Below are positions 27,986 through 61,962 of a DNA stretch of 64,000 nucleotides, one piece after another. The stretch comes from a virus (Duplodnaviria; Heunggongvirae; Uroviricota; Caudoviricetes). The DNA is taken from IMG/VR virus record IMGVR_UViG_3300023371_000005. The stretch is one strand, 5' to 3'. The translations under genes and the position numbers were made by a program. Position 1 is the first letter of the stretch. Each line of letters begins with the position of its first letter. The notes beneath the pieces are model-generated. The model was not told the origin of the DNA and ran no database searches. It saw nothing but the letters and a program-made list of their open reading frames with translations.

Positions 27986-28010
27986 TATTTGGATAGAAAG
28001 GAGAGCAACA

Positions 28011-34000: not shown

Positions 34001-34481
34001 AGAAATTGGTAGCCAGGCATTCTATGAAACCAACATTAACTTAACTTCTTTACCTGCTAAACTAAAACTTCTAAAGTCTGGTGCATTCATGGATTGTCGT
34101 GAATTGACTTTGTCTGCTTTACCAGCTTCTTTAGAGACTATCGAAAGCCACGTATTTTTCTTATGTCCTAAGATTAGTATTAATCAATTGGGTGGCGGTG
34201 ACGCTAAATTGAGTTATATCGGTATGCAAGCTTTTGGCGGCGGTTCTGGCGCTAATGGCACTGTTACTGATATTTACTTCGGCTCAACGGTTAACTTCAT
34301 TGGTGAAAACGCCTTCAAGGGATATGGTAAAAATGGTCGTGTAAGTACTATTAGCTTTGCTAAACAAAGTGTTGAAGATTATCTAATGACTGATACAGCC
34401 TACCATACTAGTATTTCTACTATGGGATTTGATAATCCTCCTTACACTGAAGTTTGGGATTGGAAAGGAGAAGGTTCTTAA
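28011..34481 (+). CDS. Giant virion-associated protein, 2156 aa, with C-terminal BspA-type leucine-rich repeats. No TAG.
   Basis: RBS AAAGGAGAG. Continuous ORF ending at TAA. The last roughly 250 aa carry repeated motifs typical of BspA/TpLRR: xIGxxAFxxCxxLTSLxLPxxLxxIxxxAF. Confidence 0.6.
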   Translation: MVDQKNVLQSIGARETGNVFRPVNCTEQDMKRKRAIPGYLYFTQDSHKIYQGLGSGEYQMVGGSSSIFYGKYPMTDDEKYGTNVFFTFSMTEHIEGENVPALDSLILNIPDGGFYRVLNVDGDAIAVERLAMSGGGGDNTGPGSNQKGNITIEYYNGADVDTNITILNGVEHWIEFTITATDEVGDILTETGTASWAINGKTYTQSVTTGYNKFRVDELLPMAKDGNYTRINLMVYMNTGGITDNYASKQWNIQKVDLRLEWPFTYSEDEYRKDSTFTLVFKPFGGINCTAHITFDNGSTLGQDYFEEDIPANRANGNEFTTQAMKSLSYGEHTCSIYLDATINEDTGKPITVRTQEIVHRITFTEGGTSTILTVPFDQKTATQYDTIEIPFLVYDPDTTECSVTFSVNDNVISTRSYNRDKQSIPYTITTHGTIKLALESTNGDTKREFNITVEPLDLNREEVSGAAFSLKAINFSGNDEVINWVGGSETKPVRLNFSDNFDWRNGGLKYEVLADGSIEKFICVRQGTWMEIDYKLFENFKTGTTGGKNFKFCFKAANCYDYEAPVLSCIHYNYNEIELTEDTYRTNKYYILSGSDYIISRNPFDETATYFEKVRVAEIGLEFDAQKATFSSATYPNFATQYCENSYIEVETEIWPNVGDRQQGSKTVYGDRYLMIWVDGVPAGAKPYSQNMALQQNDAQTIRIGSDSCDVYVYTAKAYERRLTNDEHLNNFVMDAPSVNKMLERHRRNDIIDSSTGEISYELLVQKNPGCHAYLYDIPELTTNKEDKIDGCTYYELINEYDNLGKPFMRADKVRTYVQGTSSAAYGVAAFNLRSDFTKKGKIYDKNGNEIPGWRPSDEDEYIDIACTKVNVASCENANNVVNAEWYNRFQPYWDAHRRKGTRYDSDGNLLYNPMRDCMKFHSGVVFLRDHNTQFKYLDDNGDPKSEIYLESNAFINPTNPDWEAKYAAEPYFKMYSIGNMGNDKKNLNVFHDTTNPRAACVEVLDNQNAEHWMTIFNEKAFEKEVVGQDEEGKDITKGPYYEFRYGLVENEDLLENEQGITVEQQEQDFLRLAEWFAMNDPSPYDELSHPNGYTGEELPEPVTFTDDFVFEGFDPPGYEGQPNPTEISLKGQKISRYKGTYTHDTKDYRIAKMLYECEDYLVMDSVVFHYLYISRHTMVDNVAKNTFWSTEDGFHWDLTKNYDNDTSDGNDNTGNLTYTYGLEVGDINPNGKDVFNASPSVWLNFIHELREAQQYLFQELSKKGAWDADDYLAEFKAHQDIIPEICWIQDYERKYIRPRRLGLDETTFLSRLEGGRKTHQRKQYETYQEFYLNSKYVASTAFTDSAGIEFRFNKDGDFALQPTDVLPMTFYIDCYGTIHLGGQKRTSTRIKRGNYYNAPVGELISAASDATCYIYGASMIQTIKDLYKLYPGYAKMTNASKLREFEIGSDIEGYYNPRLSEVSVGTNAMLQKFQARNVGNPENISILSLTNATQLETVLMSGSAFKELSLAPNATTKELELNPLAIFSATNLLDLETVRLDDGIYDSIQQAYINNCPGLDVYTYRFAKAPSLTNYQFTDVNWVINDETEDDFVLDADNNVVAFAALENLTDNNTGPRLGTTTVTALSGTLTVDKACAIDEYKIYKTYAKTYPNLIFKYTDKVGANFNPAVELIFLTNENSEEQYYRVLGSGDTSGENAHSIAYLTSAQGPLGFAIGTPHKESTSSHDFAFTGYWIHKKDNVITKYYNTKDLPDGAVPEASAISFEDITPTESMTFYPEYITTDREYKVRFCDWAGNIILQNGEEYWPVPYGKTYVEAAGPMTNFHYRDNTGLQDHMRWAFQGWSKNQYKDKEIKNPVYEDLATMVVTNDVTLHGHYLTEDCRDVASKLEYFNFSERGKISIAEEYRETLQGKITLPSEYDGIPLTQVKDFKNMARVTHVFFLRTNTSYTSIFQQAFEGALALQYVDLPIGITHIGTYAFKSIKSLTTVDMKSNVEEIGSQAFYETNINLTSLPAKLKLLKSGAFMDCRELTLSALPASLETIESHVFFLCPKISINQLGGGDAKLSYIGMQAFGGGSGANGTVTDIYFGSTVNFIGENAFKGYGKNGRVSTISFAKQSVEDYLMTDTAYHTSISTMGFDNPPYTEVWDWKGEGS

Positions 34482-34693
34482 TGACTAAAGATAGAAAATA
34501 CAGATACCTTGGCCGCAATGGTATTTTAGATACTAAGGTCCTTCTAGATGGTATCAATCATATCAATATCGTAACTATCAATGCTGATCCCGGCAAGATT
34601 TTAACTAATGGTGAGCGTACTCAGTACAGCGTCACTGTTGAAGAGGCCGAGGAACATAAGTGGAGAGAAATTACGGACAATACCAAAAAATAA
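34481..34693 (+). CDS. Small hypothetical protein, about 70 aa. ATG overlaps the upstream TAA.
   Basis: ATG 34481 is in frame with track ORF 34454..34693. AAGGAGAAGG precedes it. Confidence 0.4.
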   Translation: MTKDRKYRYLGRNGILDTKVLLDGINHINIVTINADPGKILTNGERTQYSVTVEEAEEHKWREITDNTKK

Positions 34694-34711
34694 GGTTATT
34701 TGATTTTTCAG

Positions 34712-34743
34712 TTCTAGGGAAGGGAAATTCCTTCCCTAGAACA
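34712..34743 (+). other. Perfect 13-bp hairpin GTTCTAGGGAAGG / CCTTCCCTAGAAC without a T-run
   Basis: Inverted repeat seen directly. No U-tract on either strand, so not an intrinsic terminator. Possible RNA stability or processing element. Confidence 0.4.
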
Positions 34744-34769
34744 ATATTATAAAGAAAGGAAGATATAAC

Positions 34770-36782
34770 GTGATTACAGTCTATAATAAAGATTATAAAG
34801 ACCAATATACCGTTCTATTCCAAGACGCATATAACGTTTTATTGGATATGCAGGCTAAAGATCCTCTTGGTGTAAAGATTAATCAGTCTGTTTTGGATAA
34901 AGGCAAAATCAGTTCTCTTGAAGAGTATTTTGCTCATATTGGTTATTTAGCAGATTATCACACTGAAAATATTAGAAATAATCCACCTTCTAATGTTGCA
35001 TATCAAAACTCTGCTAAGTTCTTGATGCTTCCTATGGATGAAAAATACGATGTCAAGTCTGGCTGTTTTTACATTGACCTAAATACTAGAAATATTCAGG
35101 TTCCTGATATTTATAGTAAATATGGTGTTAGTGTTACTGGTGATCAGTTAGCCGAGACTTTGATGTTTAAGGTTCCTCGCTATTTCGATTATACTGACTT
35201 GGCTTCTACTGAAATTTATGTTCAGTGGACTAACCCAGCAGGAGACGAAGGTGCTTCTCGTATTGTCTTAGTTGACTTTGAAGCAGAAGAAGGTTATCTA
35301 TTATTTGGTTGGCCTTTGACCAGTAAGGTTACTGTTGAAGGTAAAAATCCTTTGAAGTTCTCTGTTCGTTTCTTCGTAAGAAATGAAGAGAAAGAAATTC
35401 AGTACAGCTTAAATACTTTGGCTAGTTCTGTTATGATTAAGCAAGCTCTATATACTCATTTCAATGCTGACCTAGACATTGATGATCCATCTTTGTTGTT
35501 TGCGGCCGCAGTTGAAAATGGCGTTGACTCCAACATGACTCTACCTCAGATTCCTGTCTTCTTCTATGATTGGAAATTGGGTAATGACGAAGGAAAAGCT
35601 TTCTTAAAGAATGATGCAATTAAGCTATATGCTAGCGGTGCCACTGCTGATGCAGGTCAGTTGTGCTACAAGTGGTATTATACTCCTCGATTCATCGAAA
35701 ATAATGTCGCTGTAACTAAAGATACTGAAGAAGTTTTCAAGGCTTACGCTGATGTAGATACTATCTTCAAGCCCACAAATGATACTGAAAAAGAAGCTGG
35801 CAAGACTTATTATGTTGAAGAAATCGAAGCTGAAACTGGCAATCAGATTTATACTGTTTTCCTAGGCGATGCTTTTGAAGAGCCAGAAGAGGGAGAAGCT
35901 GCTCCTGTTTATTATGAGCAGGTAAGTGTTTATACCATTTTGGCTGTTGATGATGATGCTGAGGATTTGGGTGCTTCTACTGCGCTAGCACCTAATAAGA
36001 GATATTGGCCTCACGTCACCGGTGAATACAAGCTAACTTTGAACAATCAAGTTGGTAGTAGCAAATCTGCAGAGAGCGTTGATTCTTTGAAGTGCGTAAT
36101 TCCTTGTGTTGAAAAAGTTGAGTTCACCGCAGATTTACCTAAGAACAAAGTTCTATCTACTATTGGCGAAGGCGAAGAGACTGTTAGCCAGGCTATTTTA
36201 ACTGTTACTGTTGATGCAAATGACGGTGCTGAAAAGAGCTATGTATGGTATGAAGCTGCTTCTTCTGACGCTGAATATGTTGAAGTTCCCAATGCTTCTA
36301 ATGCTAGTATGACTGCTACTCAGCCAGGCTGGTATAAAGTTAAGGCTATCGGTACTTTGAACAGAGAGAGTATGTGGAAAGAAAGTTCTGAATGTAAGGT
36401 TACTTATCCTGCTGAAGCTCCTGAAATCGTCAAGTATCTAGTTGATGGTATCGAGTATCCTATTACAGATGATGACCCAACTTTAGAGAATGTTCCTGGC
36501 TTGAATACTCCTATTACCTTCAAGATTGAAATTGAAGAAATGAATGAGTTCCAGACTGACGGTGTCACTTACAAGTGGTTCCGCAATACTCCTAACCAGA
36601 ATGGTACTCCTATTAAGGATTCTGATCTAGATATTATTAGTGTAAATGGCAGTGAAATTACTGTTAAGCTATTAGCTAATAATGACTTGCCTGTTAATAT
36701 TGCCTTCTATTACTGTGAAATCACTAATACTCTAGCAGGAGAAGAAAAGAAAACTACTTCTAAGGTATTCCAGATTTCTTAA
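34770..36782 (+). CDS. Hypothetical structural protein, 670 aa. GTG start, no TAG.
   Basis: RBS AAAGGAAG. Continuous ORF. TAA stop. Confidence 0.5.
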   Translation: MITVYNKDYKDQYTVLFQDAYNVLLDMQAKDPLGVKINQSVLDKGKISSLEEYFAHIGYLADYHTENIRNNPPSNVAYQNSAKFLMLPMDEKYDVKSGCFYIDLNTRNIQVPDIYSKYGVSVTGDQLAETLMFKVPRYFDYTDLASTEIYVQWTNPAGDEGASRIVLVDFEAEEGYLLFGWPLTSKVTVEGKNPLKFSVRFFVRNEEKEIQYSLNTLASSVMIKQALYTHFNADLDIDDPSLLFAAAVENGVDSNMTLPQIPVFFYDWKLGNDEGKAFLKNDAIKLYASGATADAGQLCYKWYYTPRFIENNVAVTKDTEEVFKAYADVDTIFKPTNDTEKEAGKTYYVEEIEAETGNQIYTVFLGDAFEEPEEGEAAPVYYEQVSVYTILAVDDDAEDLGASTALAPNKRYWPHVTGEYKLTLNNQVGSSKSAESVDSLKCVIPCVEKVEFTADLPKNKVLSTIGEGEETVSQAILTVTVDANDGAEKSYVWYEAASSDAEYVEVPNASNASMTATQPGWYKVKAIGTLNRESMWKESSECKVTYPAEAPEIVKYLVDGIEYPITDDDPTLENVPGLNTPITFKIEIEEMNEFQTDGVTYKWFRNTPNQNGTPIKDSDLDIISVNGSEITVKLLANNDLPVNIAFYYCEITNTLAGEEKKTTSKVFQIS

Positions 36783-36800
36783 TAAAGGAGGTCAATAATT

Positions 36801-37448
36801 ATGTCACAGTTAAGTCAAACTGCTATTGACAAATTATATGAAATCCAAAGAAGTAATCCTCCAAAGATGGCTTCCATTCCATATGCGGAGGATTACATTG
36901 AAGTTGATTGGCGTACTCGCTCAATTGGAGAACGTGATATCCTAAGCACTGCTCGTGACCATAAATCCGAAAATTTATACTTTATCATGGATAGATATTG
37001 GGATTATATGGACTTGTCTACCACCACCTGTGTTATTTCTTATAAGACTTATCCCGCAGACCCCCAGAAGCAAGGTGTGACTGGTTTATATGCCGTTCCA
37101 TATTACGACATTTATACTCATAAAGCTACTCCTGGCACTTTGGAAAAGGATAAGATGGTTATTCCATGGTGTATTGATGGACGAGTAACTCAAGACGAAG
37201 CAGAAGTAGAATATGCCATTCGTTTTTATCGTGTTGATGCTGATGGAAAGAAAATCCTCTATAATATCAGCACCATGCCAAATGTTGGCAAAGTCCTATA
37301 TGGACTAAACGTTCAGCCAAACGGCCTTGAAGACGCCGGAGATCTAGCTGGTGATTATGATATTGCTAGTAGTATGTATGAACATTTTACTGACGAAATC
37401 AGAAAATTAAATCAGCAAGATATTTTTTGGATTGAATTTGTTTCATAA
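36801..37448 (+). CDS. Hypothetical protein, 215 aa, no TAG
   Basis: AAAGGAGG RBS. TAA stop. Confidence 0.5.
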   Translation: MSQLSQTAIDKLYEIQRSNPPKMASIPYAEDYIEVDWRTRSIGERDILSTARDHKSENLYFIMDRYWDYMDLSTTTCVISYKTYPADPQKQGVTGLYAVPYYDIYTHKATPGTLEKDKMVIPWCIDGRVTQDEAEVEYAIRFYRVDADGKKILYNISTMPNVGKVLYGLNVQPNGLEDAGDLAGDYDIASSMYEHFTDEIRKLNQQDIFWIEFVS

Positions 37449-41933: not shown

Positions 41934-42341
41934 ATGGACTGGATGGTTATGTTATATCAAATTTTTGAACTTTGCGTTATTCCTCTCTTGGGTGTATTGA
42001 CTATGTACTTAGTTCAATTCATTAAAATGAAGAGCCAAGAAATCGCAGATAAGACTGATAGTGAATTAGCAGATAAGTACATTCAAATGCTTGCTGATAC
42101 TATCACTACTTGCGTTATCGCAACTAATCAGACTTATGTTGAATCTTTGAAGAAGCAAGGTAAGTTTGATGCAGAAGCTCAGAAGGAAGCTTTCAATTTG
42201 ACTTATAATGCAGTTATGTCTGTATTAACTGATGAAGCTAAGCATTATTTGGCTTCCATTTATGGCGACTTGACCGCCTACATTACTAGTCGTATTGAGG
42301 CTGAGGTTAATGTAAGTAAGATTGTTCCTGTTACTGAGTAA
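41934..42341 (+). CDS. Small membrane protein with one N-terminal TM helix, 135 aa. Possible holin-like protein.
   Basis: AAGGGGGA RBS. Hydrophobic segment VIPLLGVLTMYLVQFI. TAA stop. Confidence 0.4.
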   Translation: MDWMVMLYQIFELCVIPLLGVLTMYLVQFIKMKSQEIADKTDSELADKYIQMLADTITTCVIATNQTYVESLKKQGKFDAEAQKEAFNLTYNAVMSVLTDEAKHYLASIYGDLTAYITSRIEAEVNVSKIVPVTE

Positions 42342-42351
42342 TTGCGGAGAT

Positions 42352-42394
42352 ACCCGAAAAATACCTAAAAAGTATTTTTCGGGTATTTTTTTTT
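42352..42394 (+). terminator. Strong rho-independent terminator ending the structural operon
   Basis: ACCCGAAAAATAC-ctaaaaa-GTATTTTTCGGGT 13-bp perfect stem followed by a T9 run. Confidence 0.7.
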
Positions 42395-42436
42395 GTCATT
42401 CGCAGGACCTCAAAAAGTTATGTCCCGGTATTCTTA

Positions 42437-42541
42437 CGGTCCATTTTTGGTTATTTTTCATTCCAGTCGCGGTCCATTTTCGGTTAGGGTTCGGTCCTCG
42501 TTTGGACAAATTAGGGTAATTTTTCGGTCCTAATTTTCATA
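42437..42541 (+). repeat. Array of 4 direct repeats sharing the core CGGTCC. Core starts at 42437, 42470, 42492 and 42525, i.e. spacings of 33, 22 and 33 nt.
   Basis: Units: CGGTCCATTTTTGGTTA, CGGTCCATTTTCGGTTA, CGGTCCTCGTTTGGACA, CGGTCCTAATTTTCATA. Located in a 250-nt non-coding region between a terminator and the next gene. Confidence 0.6.
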
Positions 42542-42595
42542 AAGCTATGAGGGGATTGGATAAAATATTTTTTGTATGGAGAGGAGACCTTACAT

Positions 42596-43030
42596 ATGTA
42601 CTCAAACTATAATTATTATCCACAACAACCCTAGCAAGTCGCCCAATAGCAACCAGTGTACCAACCATTGTCTTACTTACGACAGGCGCCGCCGCAAGCA
42701 GGACTGAAAGGACGCTTGGTAGCATCATTGGAAGAGGCCCGTGCAACCTCTATTGACTTTGATGGTTCTGTATTCTACTTCCCAGATTTAGCGAACAGAC
42801 GAATCTACACAAAACAAATAAATATGGATGGCACCGCATCACTGTGTGTGTATGAATTAAGGGAAATGCCCGTTTAGAGAGAAGAGAGCGGTTCTGTTCC
42901 ATCCGTTGAGAAATTTGTAACGAGAGAAGAGTTTGAGCAGGTCCTGGCGCAACTACAAATGCTCCAGAAGCCAACCGAGCCGGCCGTATCTGCCCCCGCA
43001 AAAGAAAAAGTAGAATTAATGTCATTCTAA
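42596..43030 (+). CDS. Gln-rich hypothetical protein, about 144 aa, 3 in-frame TAG. Two of them fall inside the poly-Q run.
   Basis: ATG 42596 preceded by GGAGAGGAG. Reads MYSNYNYYPQQP-TAG-QVAQ-TAG-QPVYQ. Third TAG at 42875. TAA 43028-43030. Confidence 0.55.
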
Positions 43031-45068: not shown

Positions 45069-45376
45069 TTATAAATGGCGTGCGCTGGCGGGTCCGGTTG
45101 GTCTCGCCAGCCCATCCAATGCTACTTACGCCTTGGAGAACTCACGCTCTTGGAGTTTGTGATAAAGTCACATAGACTATATGTATAGACAAGACTCTTT
45201 CCCCTCAACAACTAAAAGAAGTCTTATGTCATGAATTAGTTCATGCTTTTATGTTTAGCTATGCTGTGGATTTATCATATGATGAAGAGGAAATGGTAGC
45301 AGAGCTTATGACTGAATATGGAGAAGATATATTAGAACGGACAAACGCGATTTATAATGGTATAAAAATGAAATAA
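45065..45376 (+). CDS. Small HExxH metallopeptidase-like protein (ImmA/IrrE or SprT-like fold), 104 aa, one in-frame TAG
   Basis: Frame 2 reading: MIINGVRWRVRLVSPAHPMLLTPWRTHALGVCDKVT-TAG-TICIDKTLSPQQLKEVLCHELVHAFMFSYAVD... The motif I.ID..L....LKEVLCHELVHAF follows the ImmA-type pattern. Start ATG overlaps the end of the upstream gene. TAA 45374-45376. Confidence 0.45.
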
Positions 45377-45419
45377 GGGTCGATTATGAATAATCATAAT
45401 CGACCCCTTATTTTTTTTT
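45377..45419. terminator. Bidirectional rho-independent terminator at the convergence of the + and - arms
   Basis: GGGTCGATTATGA-ataa-TCATAATCGACCC 13-bp perfect stem. T-run on the + side and a T-rich tract on the - side. Confidence 0.7.
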
Positions 45420-45422
45420 GGT

Positions 45423-45881
45423 TTAATCAACAACGTCGTCATTATCAACTTTTAAGTCTAAAGCCATAGCCTTATCATAATAGATTTTAGCTTGACCGTT
45501 GCCACCCAAACCAGTATATAATTTATAGAACTCGGTTAACTGTTCCATCTGTGCAGGAGTAATATATCCCTGAGCTAAGAATCCTTTGCATAATTGTACT
45601 AAGCGGAAACGATAAGAAGCAATAATCAGATTCATATGAGTCTTCTCGATGTTCTCAGTTTCTCTGATATATTTTCTTAGTTCCTCTAATTCCTGATATA
45701 CTGGTTCTAAATGGATCTCAATGGTGTCCTCGACATGTTGTCTCTCTTGGGCGGCGGCTAATTCTCTAGCGTTTCTTAATTCACGATTCAATTCACGAGT
45801 TTTGAACTTAGCATAACCAATTACACCGGCACTGATAAGAGCAAACAAAATCTCCATACCCCACTCAGCTAATAATTCCAT
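45423..45881 (-). CDS. Hypothetical protein with an N-terminal TM helix, 152 aa
   Basis: Continuous ORF. ILFALISAGVIGYAKF hydrophobic segment. RBS GGGGGA lies inside the hairpin at 45890-45940. Confidence 0.45.
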   Translation of the reverse strand: MELLAEWGMEILFALISAGVIGYAKFKTRELNRELRNARELAAAQERQHVEDTIEIHLEPVYQELEELRKYIRETENIEKTHMNLIIASYRFRLVQLCKGFLAQGYITPAQMEQLTEFYKLYTGLGGNGQAKIYYDKAMALDLKVDNDDVVD

Positions 45882-45889
45882 TTAAAGTA

Positions 45890-45940
45890 TCCCCCTTTCT
45901 AACTTCTCTGACATTTATAAGAAGTTGGATAGGGGGATTT
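45890..45940 (-). promoter_or_regulatory. Long imperfect hairpin (19 bp, 2 mismatches, C5/G5 clamps) overlapping the RBS of gene 45423..45881
   Basis: ATCCCCCTATCCAACTTCT...AGAAGTTAGAAAGGGGGAT on the - strand. No U-tract. Confidence 0.35.
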
Positions 45941-45945: not shown

Positions 45946-46431
45946 TTAGGACCAATCGAATACTTCGACCTTATTTTTGGTATAATGAGCGCCAATACAA
46001 ATAGCATCACATTCATCCTGTGTTGGTTTTACATTATAGGTTTTTACAACCCAATCTTGTGCGGCTTTCTTCTAGGCTGGACGATCTTTTCCCTTGATAC
46101 CAAGAGAAGATTTCCAGACGGTAGAAAGAACGGCGGTTCGAGGCATTTTCATTTCAACAAATAATTCATGTAAAACGCCAAATACCTCAGCCAATGCTTT
46201 AAAGGTGGCTACATTATTGACAACATTATTTTGAAGTTGAATATCTTCAAAGACGACTTCGTCAATATCAAACTTCTCAATTAAACCAATAACTTCCTTG
46301 CGAATAAAGTGAAGTCTATCTCCAACATCGGTTTGAGTTGCGGAGAACTTGCCATAATTGTAAAGTTCACCATCATCAAATACTGCCCAACCAGTCACGC
46401 GACTGGCCTGGTCCAATGCAAGAGTTCTCAC
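45946..46431 (-). CDS. ruvC: RuvC-type Holliday junction resolvase, about 161 aa, with one in-frame TAG (46074-46072) upstream of the catalytic C-terminal motif
   Basis: N-terminus MRTLALDQASRVTGWAVFDDGEL (GTG start overlapping the dut stop). After the TAG the frame continues as KKAAQDWVVKTYNVKPTQDECDAICIGAHY...*. The DxxDAxxIxxH pattern matches the RuvC C-terminal acidic/His motif. Stop TAA 45948-45946. Confidence 0.65.
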
Positions 46432-46972: not shown

Positions 46973-47215
46973 TTAACCCCTTTCATAAGTGACGGTATAA
47001 ACATCCTCGGGGTCTTTCTCATTAGTGAAAATCTTAGTAGCAGTAACTACTTGATATTCTTCAATAACTTCACCCTTAGCCTTAATTTGCTTAGTCTTAT
47101 AACTAAAAGCAGTTAGGTCAAAAGTGGGATCATCTAGTAATTGTTCATGAAGAGCCTCAACATCGGCAATGGTGGGAACTCTATAAGTATCAACAGCTTT
47201 TAATAAATATTTCAT
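46973..47215 (-). CDS. Hypothetical protein, 80 aa
   Basis: Continuous ORF tightly packed in the operon. Confidence 0.4.
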   Translation of the reverse strand: MKYLLKAVDTYRVPTIADVEALHEQLLDDPTFDLTAFSYKTKQIKAKGEVIEEYQVVTATKIFTNEKDPEDVYTVTYERG

Positions 47216-47490
47216 CTTATTACCTCTACAACAATATTATTTCGACTATAATTCATTTTTGAGTAAGCAAGAATATCTTCGGAAACAGCATTACCGAAAA
47301 CACTATTGCCACTCAAATATACATGATCAATTTTCTTTTCATTACTGATTGTACTGATTACCTCTGGAAGTCCTTCCATGGTGGTAATTGCTACGCACTC
47401 TTTATCTCCAGTATCTGTATCAACGATATAGACTCTCTGGTGCAAATCGAACATATGTAATTCACAATAAATTCTTTTCATTTCATTCAC
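47212..47490 (-). CDS. Hypothetical protein, 92 aa, GTG start
   Basis: Continuous ORF. Overlaps its neighbours by 4 nt. Confidence 0.4.
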   Translation of the reverse strand: MNEMKRIYCELHMFDLHQRVYIVDTDTGDKECVAITTMEGLPEVISTISNEKKIDHVYLSGNSVFGNAVSEDILAYSKMNYSRNNIVVEVIR

Positions 47491-47980
47491 CTACCTGAAC
47501 TAAGCCACTATCATAAGGGAACAGATATAGACAGGTTGGGCCGTCATCTGTTTCCACCCAAATCTCCACGGCAGTGCCAGGTTCGTCGGGGTCAATGGCT
47601 TTAATTTTTCCCACATTTCGCAGACAATCAAGAACCTCTTGTGCGAAATACTGAGGCTCAATTAGTTTGAATACAGTAAAATAAGAAATCTCTTTACCGT
47701 AAAGCATATAGTATTTATTACGATACATTTCATGTAATGCTTCAATGGTTTGGATTGCCTTATTTAAATCAGCCAACTCAGGAAGCTGGGCGATAATTTG
47801 TTTATTCAAATCATATAGACCTAAATTCAAGCCTGCGCCATCAGTTCTCATTGTAACCCAATGACCGTCATGATATACGCGAATTTCACCTGAAATGGAA
47901 TCTTGAATTACTTCTCCTTCCATTGGTTCAAAATTGACTTGTGAAAGGTCCATTTTCTTGACAGTGAGTTTACTTCCCAT
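47483..47980 (-). CDS. Hypothetical protein, 165 aa
   Basis: AAAAGGAGG RBS. Lies downstream of the promoter at 48010-48038. Confidence 0.45.
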   Translation of the reverse strand: MGSKLTVKKMDLSQVNFEPMEGEVIQDSISGEIRVYHDGHWVTMRTDGAGLNLGLYDLNKQIIAQLPELADLNKAIQTIEALHEMYRNKYYMLYGKEISYFTVFKLIEPQYFAQEVLDCLRNVGKIKAIDPDEPGTAVEIWVETDDGPTCLYLFPYDSGLVQVGE

Positions 47981-48009: not shown

Positions 48010-48038
48010 AATTATATCAATTTTTTTTATGTAAGTCA
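48010..48038 (-). promoter_or_regulatory. Sigma70-like promoter on the - strand: TTGACT, 17-nt spacer, TATAAT. Copy 1 of a duplicated 39-nt element.
   Basis: On the - strand: TTGACT (48038-48033), spacer TACATAAAAAAAATTGA, TATAAT (48015-48010). The 39 nt at 48001-48039 match 55591-55629 almost exactly. Confidence 0.6.
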
Positions 48039-48499
48039 ATTATACGCTGGTTGCGAGAGCCTCTCATTTCTAGAGTCAAATCTCGCTCTGCTTCAATATA
48101 TGGACCGTCGATTAGGACGTCCGCTAATTCCAGACATGATTTGACATGAGGGTCGCCAGACCGCAATAATTCTTCATAAGTGTAGCCGCTCCAAATATAT
48201 ATCTTCACTTCTGGAAGCTTATGTCTTACCTCTTGGAGAATCAAATTTACCAGAAAAGCATTTGCTTCACACAAAGGTTCACCGCCCATAATACATAAAT
48301 TACGCTTGATTCCTTGTGCGGTTAGTCCTTCTAAAATCTTATGTAAAGTATTATTTGTAAACTCCTTACCTCCATCAAAGGCCCAGGTGCCAGGATTATG
48401 ACACCCAGGACAATGATGAGGACAGCCTTGTGTAAAAAAGCTTACACATAAACCTGGAGCAGCGGTGATATCATTTAGTATCAATCCACTGTATCTCAT
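48017..48499 (-). CDS. nrdG: Anaerobic ribonucleotide reductase activating protein (radical SAM)
   Basis: CPHHCPGCHNP radical-SAM cysteine motif. About 160 aa. Adjacent to nrdD. Confidence 0.7.
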   Translation of the reverse strand: MRYSGLILNDITAAPGLCVSFFTQGCPHHCPGCHNPGTWAFDGGKEFTNNTLHKILEGLTAQGIKRNLCIMGGEPLCEANAFLVNLILQEVRHKLPEVKIYIWSGYTYEELLRSGDPHVKSCLELADVLIDGPYIEAERDLTLEMRGSRNQRIIDLHKKN

Positions 48500-50838: not shown

Positions 50839-51405
50839 TCAATCTCGTCCTTGGGCGAATGTGGTCTCGGTCTGGTACACAATCTCTTCAGGGCCAGTCC
50901 AACCGTCCAATTCAGTGGCGTTTCTAATTTCAAAAAATGGGAAATCAATCTCGCCAAAATCAGAATAGTCAGCTAAGAAGCGACGACAAACTTCCTTGAC
51001 GTCAGGATCTTCTTCTCGATTCAACTGACGCATTAGACGCAACTTATCGGGCGTCCGCAAACGAATAGCTAGAACTTCACAATCCCCACGAGCCAAGAGA
51101 TCATGGATGCCTTGAGGATTGAAAACTCCAACATTGATATTATCTTCAACCACAGACTCGGTACTTGTGCCGTAATACCAATTATTGAACATTACACATT
51201 CAAGCATTTGGTCATTGTTAATTTTTTCTTTGAACTCATCCATTGTGTGATAAAAATAATTCACACCATGCTGTTCACCCTGTCTCATAGGACGAGTAGT
51301 ACAGCTAATAATTTTATGCCAGTCAGGTCTCATAGCGAGGACCTTATTCAACATAAAGTCCTTGCCGGAGCCTGCCTCGCCAAACAAAGCAACGATTTTA
51401 TACAT
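50839..51405 (-). CDS. Guanylate-kinase-like nucleoside monophosphate kinase. Start at internal ATG 51405 (MYKIVALFGEAGSGKDF).
   Basis: P-loop GEAGSGKDF. TTRPMRQGEQHGVNYFY...YYGT matches the guanylate kinase TTRxPRxGE..G.dY.F...YGT pattern. GAGGA RBS before 51405. Abuts the stop of the upstream Zn-ribbon ORF. Confidence 0.6.
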   Translation of the reverse strand: MYKIVALFGEAGSGKDFMLNKVLAMRPDWHKIISCTTRPMRQGEQHGVNYFYHTMDEFKEKINNDQMLECVMFNNWYYGTSTESVVEDNINVGVFNPQGIHDLLARGDCEVLAIRLRTPDKLRLMRQLNREEDPDVKEVCRRFLADYSDFGEIDFPFFEIRNATELDGWTGPEEIVYQTETTFAQGRD

Positions 51406-51406
51406 T

Positions 51407-51601
51407 TTATTCATCCTCGAACTCATATTCAATACTGCCATTTTTAGTAGTGCTTGTTGTAGTCGTTCCGCAATTCAAACACTCATAGCAGTGCTGTGCA
51501 GGATAAGTACAGAGTGTATGAGTGCAACGCATGGGCTTACCGCACTCTTCACAGACAATCTGCACAACATACATAGCTTTTACTTTTCTTTTTTGGATCA
51601 T
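51407..51601 (-). CDS. Small Zn-ribbon protein, 64 aa
   Basis: CEECG...CTH...C and CYECLNCG cysteine pairs. Immediately downstream of dnaE. Confidence 0.45.
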   Translation of the reverse strand: MIQKRKVKAMYVVQIVCEECGKPMRCTHTLCTYPAQHCYECLNCGTTTTSTTKNGSIEYEFEDE

Positions 51602-55631: not shown

Positions 55632-56755
55632 TCTTTGGTGACAATCACCAATTTCTCTGCCGCACGAGTGGCCGCAGTGTATAACCAACGAGCATGATCA
55701 ACGGGCTGGAAGGGGAACTTTTCTTCCAGAACCAAGACGTTATCCCATTCAGAACCCTGCGCTTTATGACAGGTAATGGCATATCCATAAGTAAATTCCT
55801 TTGGCACAACATCGCCAATACGATTTTTTAGCTTATTCAGCTTATACTTATCACGCCATTCAAGCTCGCTTTCGCCGCCCTTCATAATGCGAGGGTCCAT
55901 ATTGATATGACCATAATTCTCACCTAAGTCAGATTCAAATACACCAGTAAGGATATTGATCTTACCCTTCTCATAAGCGTAAAACGGGACATTGATATGA
56001 CTATACTTGGGATCATGTAATGTTCCAATAGTGCCATTTACCAATGGGTCGCCGTTAGTCAAATTACCCCAGTCCCAGTAATTCCGCAGACAAATAACTT
56101 TATCTCCTTCTTCTGGCTCAGGTCCAAAACCTCGTTGCTGACGCATGAAATCATTCATACTGTGCCGTTGTAGATTAGTCGCAACAAGAACCTGGTCTGC
56201 CCAATCAAGCATTCCGGTATTGAGCGCGCTGGCTGGATAAATTTGAACTTGGTCATTCTTTATATATTCCAAAGGCTTCTGGTCTCGAATATCCATAGTC
56301 AAACGGATAATACCAGATTCAGTAGCCTGTCTCATAATTTCATCAAGGAAGATATGAGGATGGTCAAGCAAATGATTATCCTCGTCTTTCTCAATGGGTG
56401 GCAACTGGAACGGGTCGCCAAGACAAATTACATATACATTATGGGAGAATAATTTATCCATAATACTCTTGGGCGCCATGGACACCTCATCAACCACAAC
56501 GACTGTATATTCCAAAGATTTCTTTGGGATTCTAGTAAATCCACCGCCTGGACGAGGCACGCTATCATAAAGCAGACGATGTAGAGTCATTGCGTTCTTA
56601 TTGCCCTTCTTAGCTAGAACCTGGGCGGCCTTGCCTGTAAAAGTAGCAAAGCAAACTTTATTATGTTCTACATCTAATGCTTCAATGATAAATTTTACCA
56701 GAGTGCTCTTTCCTGTACCTGCCTTTAGGCGTAGCCAGCAATCACAGTGTACTTT
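55628..56755 (-). CDS. Dda/RecD-like SF1 helicase. The track ORF 55628..56590 lacks Walker A. The motif lies in frame upstream as far as an in-frame TGA at 56758-56756. No in-frame start codon was found in that 165-nt stretch.
   Basis: In-frame upstream extension reads KVHCDCWLRLKAGTGKSTLVKFIIEALDVEHNKVCFATFTGKAAQVLAKKGNKNA-MTLHRL... (compare T4 Dda GPAGTGKTTLTKFIIEAL). Downstream motifs VVVDEVSM, GDPFQLPPI, YAITCHKAQGSEWDNV and YTAATRAAEKLVIV. Confidence 0.55.
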   Translation of the reverse strand, partial: KVHCDCWLRLKAGTGKSTLVKFIIEALDVEHNKVCFATFTGKAAQVLAKKGNKNAMTLHRLLYDSVPRPGGGFTRIPKKSLEYTVVVVDEVSMAPKSIMDKLFSHNVYVICLGDPFQLPPIEKDEDNHLLDHPHIFLDEIMRQATESGIIRLTMDIRDQKPLEYIKNDQVQIYPASALNTGMLDWADQVLVATNLQRHSMNDFMRQQRGFGPEPEEGDKVICLRNYWDWGNLTNGDPLVNGTIGTLHDPKYSHINVPFYAYEKGKINILTGVFESDLGENYGHINMDPRIMKGGESELEWRDKYKLNKLKNRIGDVVPKEFTYGYAITCHKAQGSEWDNVLVLEEKFPFQPVDHARWLYTAATRAAEKLVIVTKD

Positions 56756-56816: not shown

Positions 56817-57377
56817 TCACAGTTCTACTTCCTCTCTTTCTTCAATATTCAAATCTTCAATATTCCATAGATTATCATGTAGTTCTTTATGACAATTAGA
56901 ACAAATTAAAATACATTTTTTACTTTCTTCTACTGCTTCTAATAAGTGAAAATGGTCATTGCTAATTGTAAAATCTTTTTTAGAGGGGTCAATGTGATGA
57001 AATTCTAATGCTTTTATACATCTATCATATCCACATCTTATACATTTTCCACCACGAGATTCTTTTATTTTAGCTAAAAACATTCCTCTCGTTAATTGAA
57101 CTCCATTTGGCATACAGTTATAACAACAGGTTCTTTGATGAGCCGTAGAAGTTAAAGGATAAAATTCTTTTCCACAAATGGGACAAATTTTTGGTTTTCC
57201 TTTATAAGAAGTATCTTTTTGATTCTTTTCTTTATTGGCGTATTTTTCTCTGCGCGAAGCGTTTTGACATTCTATACTACAGTATTTTTTAGTAGAACGG
57301 ATTGCCTCAAATTCATTTCCACACATAACACATTTATTTATCATATATTTTCTCCTTTTTTGAAATATTTCTTTCAT
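56817..57377 (-). CDS. HNH endonuclease with N-terminal CxxC zinc-ribbon repeats. Likely a homing-type mobile endonuclease. Probable true start at the internal ATG 57344.
   Basis: C-terminal HHIDPSKKDF...NDHFH...CSNCHKELH HNH motif. Several CxxC pairs. AAAAGGAG RBS 8 nt before ATG 57344. TGA stop. Confidence 0.65.
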   Translation of the reverse strand: MKEIFQKRRKYMINKCVMCGNEFEAIRSTKKYCSIECQNASRREKYANKEKNQKDTSYKGKPKICPICGKEFYPLTSTAHQRTCCYNCMPNGVQLTRGMFLAKIKESRGGKCIRCGYDRCIKALEFHHIDPSKKDFTISNDHFHLLEAVEESKKCILICSNCHKELHDNLWNIEDLNIEEREEVEL

Positions 57378-57468: not shown

Positions 57469-57702
57469 TCAATCATGCTCTCCTATTGCTTCATCTAAAA
57501 TCTGAATAAAACGCATCATATCTCGTTCATGCCTACGTATGACAGCCTCATGTGCTTTTGGTTCAGAGAACCCTTTACACTTCATCAATTCAATTTTGTC
57601 GTGTTCAAAGGCTTTTGCCTGGTATTCCTTAAAACGGAATACCAGACTATCAAACATATAACCCTTTAAATGCTTATTATCACTAAAATGTACTTTTTCC
57701 AT
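57469..57702 (-). CDS. Hypothetical protein, about 77 aa. The track ORF 57469..57798 is trimmed to the internal ATG that has an RBS.
   Basis: Extended -10 TGGTATAAT (57730-57722) and an AAAAGG RBS upstream of ATG 57702. TGA-TAA tandem stop. Confidence 0.4.
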   Translation of the reverse strand: MEKVHFSDNKHLKGYMFDSLVFRFKEYQAKAFEHDKIELMKCKGFSEPKAHEAVIRRHERDMMRFIQILDEAIGEHD

Positions 57703-57739
57703 ACTAATACCTTTTATTTTTATTATACCAAAATATTTC

Positions 57740-58069
57740 TTATAAATCAATAAGGAACATATTGTTGTCCAATTTAAGAAAATCTTCATCCCACTCAATT
57801 TGGGGAAAAATTTCTAAATCGCTTTTTTGTTTTGGGTTTTCGGCTGGCGCGTCTGGCACCGGTCGGATGGCGTCTTGGAGAGCAATTATATTGGCAATAG
57901 CATTGCTTATCGCTCTTTCAAGTTCATCGACTCTACATTCAAGCACTCGAAAAGAATCACTCAATGTAGTTGCAGTACTAGCCATATCACAAGTTAGCAT
58001 ATCAACTCTATCTTGGATTAGATCAACCATGTACTTTGCGCCATCAGCAGTTAATACTTGTAATGCCAT
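57740..58069 (-). CDS. Hypothetical protein, 109 aa
   Basis: Continuous ORF with a GGAGGA RBS. Confidence 0.4.
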   Translation of the reverse strand: MALQVLTADGAKYMVDLIQDRVDMLTCDMASTATTLSDSFRVLECRVDELERAISNAIANIIALQDAIRPVPDAPAENPKQKSDLEIFPQIEWDEDFLKLDNNMFLIDL

Positions 58070-58078: not shown

Positions 58079-59872
58079 TTAGAAGTAATACTTCTGTTCA
58101 CCAACAATTTCATAATCCTCAATAATAATTTGAGGAGAAACACTTCCGTTCCAGACATTGCGTTCACATTTGCCAACTACATTGATGGTGATACAACCCA
58201 TCTCACTCTTCAACTTCTCATATTCTTCTTGAGAAGATTTGAATTTGATAAGACTTGTGCCATTTGGTAAAGTGATCTTCAAAGTAGGACTCTTATCGGG
58301 AGACATGAGCACAATATTACCGCTTGATACATTGATATGTTCAATAGCAACAAATGGTTCATCAACGCCTTGACCCCAAAGAGATTTCAAACCAGCAATC
58401 TCAATGATATCACTACCTCTGAAATCTGCTCCACTGAAAATGAAATCAACTTTATAACAAGGAGTAAAATCAAACTCAGCCAAAGCCTTATTTGAATACT
58501 CCACAAATTCAGAAAATACTTTATCGTAAATGCCAACGCCGAGCGCATTAGCATGGCCTTCCGCATACATTACCAGGCCACTATTTTGTAGGAACTGGCG
58601 CAAATTATCAAACTTAGATTTATCATAACCACGACCAGAGCCTTCCCAGCTTTGCTCCTGTAAAGTCATAATCTTCTTACCATTGGTATCAAATATGTCT
58701 TGCTCAGTAATTGTCTTATTCAGTAGTAAAACTGGACGCTGGTATTTAGCCATAAGTTGGTTGGCGATAAGACCGGTTAGATTGCGATCCGCAGAAAAAG
58801 AATCCAGCTTGATTGCCAGAATTTTATTCTTCAATAAATCTTTTTGCTTGATAATAGCTTCAATAGTCTCAAGCGCAGCATCTCTTGCCTTAGTCTGACG
58901 ATTTTTGATATTCGTACAATTTCGGCACGCCTGCTCTACGCGAGTTTCTTGCTGACCCTTACAGCCTCTCTTGGTTGAAGGAATTAGCTCATATCCACGA
59001 TAATCTAACATCGATTCAAACATCAATAACTTTTCCTCTTGGCTACCCATTCGGATAGTAGCATTGACATATGGAGCAACATAGAACGCAATACCAATAG
59101 GAGTGATACCGTCCTTTAGCGAATACTGTTGCTTATCAACCATGCCTTTGAAATAAGGATTTCTGATATTTTGTAAGCCACGATGAATTAAATGCTTGGT
59201 TTCAAAATCTCTCAAATCCATCATATCGGCAATCATGCCAAGAGCAACCAAATCAAGAAACTGATCGGCATAATCAACATTCATAAGTTCGTCAATATAA
59301 GAACAAAACTTATAAACCATGCCGACACCAGAAAGAGATTTAGTTGGATAATCACATAGCTGGTTATTGATAACGCAAGCATATTCGCTAACTTTTTCAG
59401 CTTCGTGGTGGTCAATAACCAGAACATCTACTCCACGCTCATGGAGCTTTTTATGTTCTTCATAATCATTTGAACTTGAGTCTGGCGCAATTACCAACTT
59501 TACATCAGCTGGAATTGTATTGAGAATAATACCATGTTCTTTACCATTATGGATGCGGTAATAAACATTATTCTGAACATATCCAGGAAATAGGCAGTTC
59601 AAATAATTGATTAGTGTTGCCGCTGAAGTGTAACCATCACAGTCGCTATCAATTTGGATTAGGATCTTGTGTCCTTGCGAGATGTGATAAATCAACAGCT
59701 TTACACCCTACGCGATATTCGCAATAAGGGAGGGTGCTAAAATGTCTTCATCAGTTGTATTTAGATAATGCTCAATTTTATCGGGTTCAATGCCACGATT
59801 TACGAGTACCTGTTCGACCGCAGATAAAACATCCTTGTGCGGGATGCGAGGTACTATTAGTTGATATTCCAA
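58079..59872 (-). CDS. recJ: RecJ-like DHH-family single-strand DNA exonuclease, about 597 aa, with one in-frame TAG (59710-59708) in the conserved N-terminus
   Basis: The track ORF starts at TTG 59695, but the frame extends upstream through the TAG. That gives EYQLIVPRIPHKDVLSAVEQVLVNRGIEPDKIEHYLNTTDEDILAPSLIANIA-TAG-GVKLLIYHISQGHKILIQIDSDCDGYTSAATL, which matches the RecJ N-terminal pattern LxxRGIxxxxxxxxFLxP...KILIxGDxDxDGxTS. DHH motif VLVIDHHEA. AAAGGAGG RBS precedes TTG 59872. Confidence 0.6.
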
Positions 59873-59898
59873 AAGAAATCAACCTCCTTTCATAATCC

Positions 59899-60243: not shown

Positions 60244-60548
60244 CGGCGCTTACCAATCTCATGTCCTTCTGGACACATGGTGGCCGCTTCAATATGTATT
60301 TCTTTCTCATACTCATAGGGTTCTAGGTAACCCATCAATGGATTGATGCAAGTTGTCTTTTCTTCTTCAAAAAACTTTGTATTACAATCCTTTTTATAGT
60401 ACCAGCGACCGCATCCACTACACCAGTTACCCTGCGCCTGAACATCAGTTTGAAGTTGAAGTAGCGCATCAAATGAATTAGCAATTACATTCATTCGCTC
60501 TTGAATGTCGTCGGGACCATTTTTGAATACTTCTTCTAAAATTAACAT
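60216..60548 (-). CDS. Hypothetical Cys-rich protein, 110 aa
   Basis: CSGCGRWYYKKDC ... C ... CPEGH cysteine cluster. Confidence 0.4.
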   Translation of the reverse strand: MLILEEVFKNGPDDIQERMNVIANSFDALLQLQTDVQAQGNWCSGCGRWYYKKDCNTKFFEEEKTTCINPLMGYLEPYEYEKEIHIEAATMCPEGHEIGKRRWAGTRKKE

Positions 60549-61651
60549 TAGAGAATTATCCTTTCTTTGAATAATTGTAAAAATATCTGCGGGCCGCAGT
60601 CGATCGGTGAGTCCTTGTATCCTGTAACCATATTCTTATCAAAGATAAAAGAAATTGTAGTAAAGTTCTTATATCTATCTCTTAGTCTGATTAGATTAGT
60701 TTTTAGGCGCTTATATTCAGCATCGCCAATTTCCTTGAACTGACGGTCAAAGGCAATGATTACTTCTTCGGCGCCCACATCCAAAAGCATCTGCATCTGG
60801 TGCGAAGATACACTTGAACCGCAACACGCAACAGAAATATCATTTTCCAAACCAAAATAAGATTTATATAATAAACAGGATTTCTCACCTTCAAAGATAA
60901 TAGCCTTTTTCATAAGACTAATATTATCTTTACTAAAATTGAAATTATATAAGTTCATGCCAAGAGGATGATTATATAATACTTTATTGATTTTTAGAGG
61001 TCTATACTTACCATACAACTCGCCCTCTTCTGCGCATACAGTTCGTCCGCGCAAACCAACAAATCTTCCATCCTTATCAAAGTGCGGGATGGTTATTTGA
61101 TCTCCTCCTGGATAAAAACCAATGCGAGCTTGGTCTAATGCGGCCTGGGAAATACCCTCCCGCAACCACGGGCCAATCTTCACCTTGTAGTTGAAGCGTT
61201 CCAATATGTCATTTTCATAATCTTTTAGTAAAATCGTATTAGACTTCACAGAGACTTCTTGAATACGCTCGTAGTTAGCAAGAAACTTCCAATCGTCTAA
61301 TGCTTCATCGTCTGGGCCATCTTCATGTTCGCCAGAAAATCCAAATCTTTGAGCGACCCACCTTACTGCGTCGTTAAGGTCAAAGTCTTTATCCCATTGG
61401 ATTTTCGCAACTTTGATGACTAACTCAAACGGGTCGAAATATTCGTCGCAACCAGTGAAACACTTGAACAGACCTGTATTCTCATAATAATACAATTTAC
61501 GACTACCTTCTCCAGGAGGATTGTGGCAGATAGTAGAAGAGGTGAGCCCGAACGATGTGCGTCCGGGATCACCGCCAAATTCTTGAAGTAAATCGTATAT
61601 ATAGTCAGTTGTAAGTGCTTCTCTGATTTTGACTTTATCAAAGACGAGCAT
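60548..61651 (-). CDS. dnaG: DnaG-type DNA primase with zinc-binding and TOPRIM domains
   Basis: CHC2-type zinc finger ICHNPPGEGSRKLYYYENTGLFKCFTGCDEY. TOPRIM-like IIFEGEKSCLLY. Confidence 0.65.
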   Translation of the reverse strand: MLVFDKVKIREALTTDYIYDLLQEFGGDPGRTSFGLTSSTICHNPPGEGSRKLYYYENTGLFKCFTGCDEYFDPFELVIKVAKIQWDKDFDLNDAVRWVAQRFGFSGEHEDGPDDEALDDWKFLANYERIQEVSVKSNTILLKDYENDILERFNYKVKIGPWLREGISQAALDQARIGFYPGGDQITIPHFDKDGRFVGLRGRTVCAEEGELYGKYRPLKINKVLYNHPLGMNLYNFNFSKDNISLMKKAIIFEGEKSCLLYKSYFGLENDISVACCGSSVSSHQMQMLLDVGAEEVIIAFDRQFKEIGDAEYKRLKTNLIRLRDRYKNFTTISFIFDKNMVTGYKDSPIDCGPQIFLQLFKERIIL

Positions 61652-61962
61652 TAGTTGATGTCAACAAGGACCTTGACGCAATAGCCCTTCAGACCGCACT
61701 CCTGATTTACATACTTACACAGGACTTCCTGGGGAGTGCCAGGCAACTTACCGCTCTTGGACTTAGCTGCCTTCAGAATCTCTTCTGCCATCAGCTTGCC
61801 CATCTTATACTCGATGGTGCCAGCACAAACATCGGGAGCGGGCTGACGAATGTCGCTCTTACTGCCGAAGTCCTTATTACGGGGAGCGTTGTTCTTATTG
61901 CGGTTGAAGTTACCCTTGGTCTTGTTATTTCTCTTGTTGTCATTCTTTACAAACTCTGCCAT
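61651..61962 (-). CDS. Small basic hypothetical protein, about 104 aa. Trimmed from the track ORF to ATG 61962, which has AAGGAG 9 nt upstream.
   Basis: Lys/Asn-rich N-terminus. Cys-containing C-terminus. Sits between the primase and DnaB genes. Confidence 0.4.
   Translation of the reverse strand: MAEFVKNDNKRNNKTKGNFNRNKNNAPRNKDFGSKSDIRQPAPDVCAGTIEYKMGKLMAEEILKAAKSKSGKLPGTPQEVLCKYVNQECGLKGYCVKVLVDIN

Follow-up and report, generated by a model that had tools for sequence, protein, structure and literature searches.

The stretch of DNA analysed here, hereafter the window, comprises 64,000 nucleotides (nt) from a virus of the Caudoviricetes (IMG/VR record IMGVR_UViG_3300023371_000005). Its virion and lysis genes lie on the plus strand, from position 1 to ~45.4 kb (the late block), and its replication and nucleotide-metabolism genes lie on the minus strand, from 45.4 to 64 kb (the early block). 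The early block encodes a DnaE-type polymerase, DnaB, a primase-like protein and an SF1 (Dda/UvrD-like) helicase, as well as NrdD, NrdG, a dUTPase, a dNMP kinase, a RecJ-like DHH exonuclease and a RuvC-like Holliday junction resolvase (coordinates in Table 1). Our subject is the last two of these genes, ruvC and recJ, each of which is interrupted in frame by a TAG, and the possibility that these TAGs delay the synthesis of their products.

In the standard code, genes cover 89.6% of the window; with TAG as a sense codon the figure is 97.5%, and for the late half, otherwise unreadable, it climbs from 87% to 98%. Treating TGA as sense does not raise coverage of the window. In the TAG-sense gene model all 46 of 46 genes terminate in TAA or TGA, and none of the 21 minus-strand genes ends in TAG. 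The TAGs of related phages mostly align with glutamine in the window proteins (RuvC positions 8, 65 and 125; RecJ positions 21, 73, 100, 171, 378 and 581), and the TAG of the window ruvC, at codon 120, can itself be assigned to glutamine because that is the residue found there in almost all homologues. Judged by the gain in coverage, the lack of TAG terminators and the alignment of TAG with glutamine, the window genome is that of a code-15 phage, a known class, in which TAG is read as glutamine. Use of the codon is very uneven between the strands: TAG makes up 2 of 229 glutamine codons on the minus strand versus 66 of 531 on the plus strand (Fisher p = 7e-9), where one late open reading frame (ORF) of 2760 codons holds 27 TAGs. 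In the minus-strand genes the triplet TAG is found twice in the reading frame, against counts of 76 and 64 in the two remaining frames.

Downstream of the TAG in ruvC (46074-46072) the same frame continues through ...QDECDAICIGAHY... to a TAA at 45948-45946, so that the arrangement given in the original prediction, with the catalytic motif in frame after the TAG, is the one found in the sequence. Two profiles match the protein, phrog_827 at 3e-18 (residues 3-153 against profile positions 3-158 of 161, across the TAG) and phrog_159 at 1e-18, and the Pfam RuvC profile (PF02075), which also spans the TAG, scores 20.7 bits, slightly under its gathering score of 22.2. When aligned with E. coli RuvC (1HJR), window residues D7, E62, D139 and D142 fall on the catalytic D7, E66, D138 and D141; the pairwise E-value is weak (0.2), and the register is consistent with the profile matches. 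The segment after the TAG is a required part of the protein, as had been proposed, since the PHROG and Pfam profiles cross the TAG and both D139 and D142 lie beyond it. At its 5' end the gene overlaps the dUTPase stop codon in a GTGA, which indicates that the two genes sit in the same operon and makes translational coupling between them likely.

The RecJ-like protein matches phrog_2484 at 5e-153 over residues 18-594, the Pfam DHH domain (PF01368) at 61.3 bits (cut-off 28.1) and RecJ_OB (PF17768) at 28 (cut-off 27). YorK of Bacillus phage SPbeta aligns to query residues 1-590 with 37% identity, and the solved RecJ 8Y30 in the PDB matches at 3e-51 in two stretches. Residues D75, D77, D79 and G80 and the triad D154-H155-H156 are invariant among the homologues, and the protein is a putative 5'-3' exonuclease of single-stranded DNA (ssDNA). 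Here the TAG (59710-59708) lies near the start of the gene, and the in-frame N-terminal extension from 59872, preceded by a ribosome-binding site, that had been predicted upstream of it is present. The 54 residues before the TAG match the N-termini of homologues (consensus MxYQLIxP; N25, R26, I28 and I44 invariant) and align to residues 28-67 of solved bacterial RecJ; with homologues, SPbeta YorK and solved RecJ all aligning there, this part too belongs to the protein. Taking the two genes together, synthesis of full-length, catalytically competent RuvC and RecJ requires, on the evidence of these alignments, that TAG be decoded. The gaps on both sides of recJ are at most 26 nt, and these, with the dUTPase overlap, leave no room for separate ruvC and recJ promoters. 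In two related loci the recJ-like gene is split (L018:8312-11116 and L019:8386-11664) by insertions of ~1-1.2 kb after query residues 133 and/or 213, which could be introns, inteins or homing-endonuclease insertions.

The rest of the early block can be read in the standard code: dnaE, dnaB, dnaG, nrdD, nrdG, the dUTPase gene and the helicase gene are free of TAG in the window. This agrees with what had been stated for dnaE, dnaB, dnaG, nrdD and the Dda helicase, with the caveat that the helicase frame is broken (see below). The further statement that ruvC and recJ are the only minus-strand genes with a TAG stands within the window, but not beyond it. The source contig (L164, a 183-kb metagenome contig from ENA that matches the window at 100% identity across their overlap) encodes on its early strand, ~5 kb past the window end, a membrane-anchored GIY-YIG nuclease (L164:4260-5219) with three in-frame TAGs, at codons 28, 39 and 117; moreover, relatives recode the genes for dNMP kinase, NrdG, NrdD and dUTPase as well, if less. 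Among ~33 readable early-strand genes of the source genome, the carriers of TAG are exactly the three nucleases. In relatives the TAG share of the GIY-YIG gene is 22%, compared with 0-3% for gyrase, ligase, ThyA, DHFR, YorF, AAA_24 and YorH.

For comparison with relatives we collected 74 RuvC-centred, 88 RecJ-centred, 80 helicase-centred and 45 gyrase-centred loci, and dereplicated lineages at 95% nucleotide identity to compare the shares of ruvC and recJ with those of other early genes. The phage family holds standard-code, TAG-to-glutamine and TGA-to-tryptophan lineages. In TAG lineages the TAG share is 33% in ruvC versus 4.7% in the upstream enzymes (ruvC higher in 23 lineages, lower in none, tied in two), and in TGA lineages the TGA share is 81% versus 0% (nine, none and none). 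For recJ, set against DnaE, DnaB, DnaG and helicase together, the shares are 23.9% versus 2.5% in TAG lineages (higher in 32, lower in none, tied in one) and 19% versus 2.6% in TGA lineages (six, none and five); in the helicase-centred set the TAG share of recJ is 30.5%. The late strand of the same loci has 28.6% TAG and 42% TGA. DnaE stays at 0.7% TAG in the dereplicated TAG lineages (0.6-2% across locus sets), dnaB at 1-7% and dnaG at 3-6%. By these counts ruvC and recJ are coded like late genes across the family, though they lie within the replication block, and codon usage shows this gene-class bias in two independent recodings. The expectation that homologous phages would keep TAG in ruvC and recJ therefore holds at the level of the gene, where recoded stops are far above the replisome in both TAG and TGA lineages; it fails at the level of the exact site, since the sites turn over.

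The same order of genes is obtained by counting distinct TAG sites per 100 codons, a measure less sensitive to shared ancestry: 12.4 for RuvC, 9.2 for a 152-amino-acid (aa) membrane protein encoded next to it, 7.2 for RecJ, 6.6 for NrdD, 6.0 for dNMP kinase, 1.8 for DnaB and 1.7 for DnaE. Within the two genes the TAGs lie nearer the 5' end than the ordinary glutamine codons do, with a median TAG codon of 139 versus 314 for CAA/CAG in recJ (p = 4e-5) and of 65 versus 120 in ruvC (p = 1e-5); such a bias is weak in the late genes of the window. In relatives (L026-L091 and L315-L394) the dNMP kinase gene reaches 17-24% TAG and 27% TGA, and nrdG 11-18% TAG and 39% TGA. As judged from these shares, the recoded part of the early block extends past the nucleases, as a gradient with the nucleases on top and not as a clean two-gene switch.

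We propose the following course of events. Early in infection the host machinery would terminate at TAG, and DnaE, DnaB, the primase and most nucleotide enzymes would be produced, but none of the three nucleases (RuvC, RecJ and GIY-YIG). With TAG suppression active, presumably later, the nucleases would be made together with the virion and lysis proteins. Branched phage concatemers must be resolved, and their ends processed, for packaging; synthesis of the nucleases would then coincide with the need for both. In short, the replisome would be readable by unmodified host machinery, and RuvC, RecJ and the GIY-YIG nuclease would be made only when TAG suppression is active; we put the probability of this reading at about 0.6. 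That suppression is delayed, and that selection acts on the delay, are both steps that we infer. A timing switch, as the original prediction had it, is a plausible reading of the TAGs in ruvC and recJ because relatives recode these two genes like late genes and do not so recode the replisome. The concept has already been published (Borges et al., bioRxiv 10.1101/2021.08.26.457843), and, as in that model, recoded codons are confined here to a subset of genes and the early genes are readable in the host code.

Several observations weigh against a selected delay. The TAG shares of ruvC (33%) and recJ (24%) bracket that of the late strand (~29%), as relaxed selection alone would give, and the counts of higher and lower shares come from related lineages, so that sign tests on them overstate independence. 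NrdG, dNMP kinase, NrdD and dUTPase are intermediate in relatives, and in one TGA clade (L315-L323) ruvC is heavily recoded and recJ has no TGA. The individual sites are also poorly kept. Codon 120 of ruvC is CAG, and the gene TAG-free, in six of seven strain-level relatives (94-95% nucleotide identity); in that set the TAG is common only to L310, an independent assembly from another sample that is 100% identical to the window. It is absent as well from L026 and L031, whose RuvC is ~80% identical. The ruvC TAG is thus, by this comparison, a strain-level CAG-to-TAG polymorphism and a recent change, and, missing from so many relatives, it cannot be essential regulation in the lineage. In recJ the TAG persists among the strain relatives (L164-L167), to as low as 87% protein identity; in relatives of 59-82% identity codon 55 is E, Q, D or N, and TAGs occur elsewhere instead.

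The agent that would decode TAG did not come to light either. No suppressor tRNA was found in the 64-kb window by ARAGORN, by Rfam at gathering and E-value thresholds, or by Rfam on the gene-poor segment 42200-43400; none was found in the 10-kb flanks on either side in the source genome; and none was found at positions 51.7-128.1 kb (~76 kb) of the closest IMG/VR relative, of 132 kb. Nor did any of these three regions yield a release factor or another gene that might change the code. The release-factor GGQ motif was absent from the 308 sequences scanned. No tRNA gene of any kind was found in ~84 kb of the window genome (window, L164 and L168) or in ~76 kb of that closest relative (L026, L011, L177, L219, L226 and L228). 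Near ruvC, only two TGA-recoded relatives carry a tRNA(UCA), an opal suppressor that ARAGORN labels tRNA-SeC, on the late strand 1.2-1.4 kb downstream of the gene (L079:11879-11950 and L090:11608-11702, both on the minus strand); at the same position the window has protein-coding genes and no tRNA. A further relative (L227) carries 14 tRNAs.

A more specific version of the proposal would see the recoded stops as gene-specific safety locks on DNA-cutting enzymes encoded in early operons (RuvC, RecJ-like and GIY-YIG), reached convergently through TAG-to-glutamine and TGA-to-tryptophan recoding and placed towards the 5' end. They would have been selected because premature nuclease activity damages replicating phage DNA or triggers host defences, and the code switch, which in this lineage would work without a phage-encoded suppressor tRNA, would imply an unknown decoding trigger. 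The ruvC and recJ of the window strain are only lightly locked, by a single TAG each. We hold this version only tentatively and would sooner doubt it than rely on it.

The most serious alternative is permissive drift. Once TAG means glutamine, a change from CAG to TAG is synonymous and would accumulate in genes that are not needed before the switch; no lock would have been selected, and any delay would be a functionless by-product. This would account for the nearness of the ruvC and recJ shares (recJ also in the helicase-centred set) to the 28.6% of the late strand, for the fast turnover of TAG sites, with CAG and TAG alternating among strains and relatives using other sites, and for the intermediate shares in nucleotide-metabolism genes, which resemble a gradient and not a switch. 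It does not readily explain the strong 5' bias of TAGs relative to CAA/CAG within recJ and ruvC, nor why ruvC in TGA lineages, at 81%, exceeds the 42% of the late strand, nor why the pattern appears in three different nucleases and not in ~29 other early-strand genes of the source genome. On balance we consider drift alone an unlikely explanation, if one to be taken seriously.

Control of dosage appears improbable. TAG suppression would then be incomplete throughout infection, and each TAG would lower the yield of a protein needed in small amounts. Nucleases are indeed required in few copies and can be toxic, a bias to the 5' end would make truncated products less costly, and the failure to find a dedicated suppressor tRNA in the window fits weak or leaky decoding. 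However, the most abundant virion proteins have the most TAGs, as in the 2760-codon late ORF, which is hard to square with inefficient late read-through, and the 13-18 TAGs found in recJ of some relatives would abolish its synthesis under leaky decoding. Least credible of all, and in our view safely set aside, is that the TAGs are real stops or errors, with ruvC a pseudogene, a sequencing error or the source of a 119-aa product and RecJ made without its N-terminus from an internal TTG at 59695: the strain-specific ruvC TAG, the frameshift in the neighbouring helicase gene of the window strain and the 538-aa ORF with all DHH motifs that this TTG, five codons past the recJ TAG, opens would fit such a view, but the ruvC TAG recurs in the independent assembly L310, truncation would cost RuvC D139 and D142, in dozens of relatives recJ and ruvC, conserved in other respects, contain as many as 18 in-frame TAGs, and the late half of the window can be read only with TAG as sense. 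A shorter RecJ starting at the internal TTG is possible in principle; the conserved N-terminus, homologous to that of bacterial RecJ, and its own strong ribosome-binding site argue against it as the normal product.

The case sharpens the timing hypothesis. Earlier evidence for recoding as timing came from whole gene blocks that differ in code; here a marked difference in code separates genes within single, densely packed operons, with nucleases on the recoded side, in many lineages and with both reassigned codons, which gives the hypothesis a more testable form. It also offers a possible biological reason, in that junction-cutting and end-resecting enzymes would be kept off early replication intermediates. 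At a practical level, standard-code annotation cuts RuvC, RecJ and the GIY-YIG nuclease short in this phage family, and they are for this reason mis-annotated as fragments.

Among the other genes of the early block, the Dda/UvrD-like helicase gene has a broken frame, with codons 1-31 at 56820-56728 and the remainder read in another frame from 56722 (minus strand). The break is due to an 8-nt insertion at ~56720-56727, at the Walker A motif (GCC-TAAAGGCA-GGT), which is missing in strain relatives L165 and L166, where the protein is intact at 402 aa; mutation, programmed frameshifting and misassembly are all possible causes. Directly 5' of the helicase gene, and likewise absent from these two relatives, lies an ORF of 186 aa (56817-57377, minus strand) that is cysteine-rich and zinc-finger-like, has no TAG and no Pfam match, and may be a mobile endonuclease-like gene. 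We considered whether the helicase gene is split by an intron carrying this ORF and rejected the idea, as the N-terminal exon is contiguous and the break consists of the insertion and its frameshift. Two TAG-containing ORF extensions (47212-47661 and 57469-57885) were rejected as genes because they overlap better-supported genes in other frames. The automatic gene model also placed a minus-strand ORF at 42537-43025; the real gene there is on the plus strand (~42596-43030), is Gln/Pro-rich, has three TAGs and its own ribosome-binding site, and is missed under the standard code.

The early block ends with the gene for the 152-aa membrane protein, which is free of TAG in the window; its homologues (in L026-L091) are among the most recoded genes, and it resembles the 'strongly recoded transmembrane protein' of Agate phages. 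Between it and ruvC a stable hairpin is predicted whose 3' arm contains the GGGGGA ribosome-binding site of the 152-aa gene, and which may add another level of translational regulation where the early block ends. On the late strand, a strong intrinsic terminator follows the holin gene (42344-42395, plus strand). Seven consecutive plus-strand genes at 22812-37448 (495, 473, 709, 2156, 79, 670 and 215 aa; ~4800 codons) have no TAG, and their G+C content and CAG use are above those of the flanking TAG-rich late genes; possible explanations are an island of standard code, a module expressed earlier, or recent acquisition. Reading TAG as sense fuses standard-code ORFs on the plus strand into frames of 2760, 1861, 948 and 965 codons (30-8312, 8428-14013, 14467-17313 and 17313-20210), in which many TAGs sit at the ends of standard ORFs, 57-190 nt ahead of the next ATG in the same frame; some of them may also act as partial stops giving short and long products. 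The first of these frames extends beyond the start of the window and has a weak CW_7 match at its end, and for these reasons it probably encodes the tape-measure protein.

As for the origin of the phage, Pfam domains named after SPbeta proteins (YorF, YorH, YonB and YomU) are present in the flanks of the source genome, and IMG/VR contains many related contigs of 110-200 kb. In a scan of bacterial genomes, some related contigs were found binned in metagenome-assembled genomes of Clostridia (Acutalibacteraceae, Clostridium sp. and Gemmiger), a hint at a Clostridia host that stops short of a host assignment. Megablast of 14.6 kb of the window against GenBank phages gave no match, relatives there being found at the protein level only. 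The phage, which uses code 15, is probably SPbeta-like, roughly 130-180 kb in size and a parasite of gut Clostridia.

Table 1. Genes and sequence features of the window, with position, strand and basis or remark.
Feature	Position	Strand	Basis or remark
Bidirectional intrinsic terminator	45375-45408	both	convergence point of late (+) and early (-) blocks
152-aa protein with N-terminal transmembrane segment, last gene of minus-strand block	45423-45881	-	no TAG in window
Stable hairpin between ruvC and 152-aa gene	45889-45938	-	RNA fold -27 kcal/mol, z = -3.9
RuvC-like Holliday junction resolvase, 161 codons, GTG start, TAA stop (45948-45946)	45946-46431	-	PHROG, Pfam, 1HJR
RuvC codons 139-142 (D-E-C-D), two C-terminal catalytic Asp, 3' of TAG	46006-46017	-	1HJR alignment
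Single in-frame TAG, RuvC codon 120	46072-46074	-	read as Gln; Q in nearly all of 74 homologous loci
GTGA overlap, dUTPase TGA stop / RuvC GTG start	46428-46431	-	sequence and ORF coordinates
NrdG	48017-48499	-	TAG-free in window
dNMP kinase	50839-51441	-	TAG-free in window
DnaE-type polymerase, 1321 aa	51602-55567	-	TAG-free, 0/44 Gln codons TAG; standard-code comparator
RecJ-like DHH ssDNA exonuclease (SPbeta YorK family), 597 codons, TTG start, TAA stop	58079-59872	-	PHROG, Pfam, PDB
DHH motif I (DSDCDG, codons 75-80), first catalytic motif, after TAG	59633-59650	-	alignment A1 (RecJ homologues)
Single in-frame TAG, RecJ codon 55, 5' of DHH motif I	59708-59710	-	sequence
Shine-Dalgarno AAAGGAGG, 10 nt 5' of RecJ TTG start (59872)	59883-59890	-	sequence
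Primase-like gene	60548-61651	-	TAG-free
147-aa ORF between primase-like gene and DnaB	within 60548-63580	-	TAG-free
DnaB helicase	62042-63580	-	TAG-free
Holin	41934-42341	+	phrog_13712

Stop-codon recoding in gut phages, TAG to glutamine (code 15) or TGA to tryptophan (code 4), has been reported to regulate late, lytic translation (Borges et al.). The present genome resembles those phages in that TAG means glutamine, recoded codons are concentrated in structural and lysis genes, the replication machinery is mostly in the standard code, and TAG-recoded, TGA-recoded and standard-code phages occur among close relatives; the logic, host code first and a switch afterwards, is the same. Unlike in that account, the rule here is that three nucleases are recoded (NrdG and dNMP kinase less so) and the replisome is not, and no suppressor tRNA was found in the window lineage. 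The closest precedent is in Agate phages, where an early gene contains a recoded intron homing endonuclease and the authors proposed that production of the nuclease is held until late (bioRxiv 10.1101/2021.08.26.457843). There, too, a nuclease within the early region is preferentially written with recoded stops, but it is a selfish mobile endonuclease, whereas here core recombination and DNA-processing enzymes (RuvC and RecJ-like) and a membrane-anchored GIY-YIG nuclease are concerned, in TAG as well as TGA lineages. The case for membership of the Agate clade is circumstantial: it consists of TAG, TGA and standard-code relatives of 110-200 kb, apparent Bacillota hosts and standard-code replication genes. 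RuvC, resolvase and RecJ are not mentioned in this context in the main texts of the Borges bioRxiv version, the phAss-1 paper and other open-access papers (supplementary tables and the Borges journal version lay outside this search), the Borges text being silent on exonucleases as well, and a 5'-biased, nuclease-specific recoding that occurs in two codes appears to be previously undescribed.

The gut phage phAss-1 ('Phassvirus' group of the Caudoviricetes code 15 clade; 136 kb, OQ749652; PMC10607447) also reads TAG as glutamine and, like the window, has DnaE, NrdD/NrdG, dUTPase, RecJ-like and RuvC-like genes, the proteins being only 29-33% identical to their window counterparts. Its RecJ homologue appears as three ORFs in the GenBank annotation, that is, it carries TAG, and its RuvC homologue is uninterrupted; the nucleases are not singled out in the paper describing it (PMC10607447). 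Unlike the window, phAss-1 has 36 tRNAs, among them tRNA-Sup-CTA species, two of whose genes lie shortly before nrdD. The replication module of Bacillus phage SPbeta (YorK, YorF and YorH, and also YonB and the tube protein YomU) has homologues in the window genome, but SPbeta itself uses the standard code and gives no evidence of translational gating. Late or middle expression of junction resolvases is familiar from T4 endonuclease VII (gene 49) and T7 endonuclease I (gene 3), which are timed by promoter class: in both phages the branch-cutting enzyme debranches concatemers before packaging and lies outside the earliest gene set. In T4 and T7 the timing is thus transcriptional, whereas in the present phage it would depend on the code in which single genes of an early operon are written.

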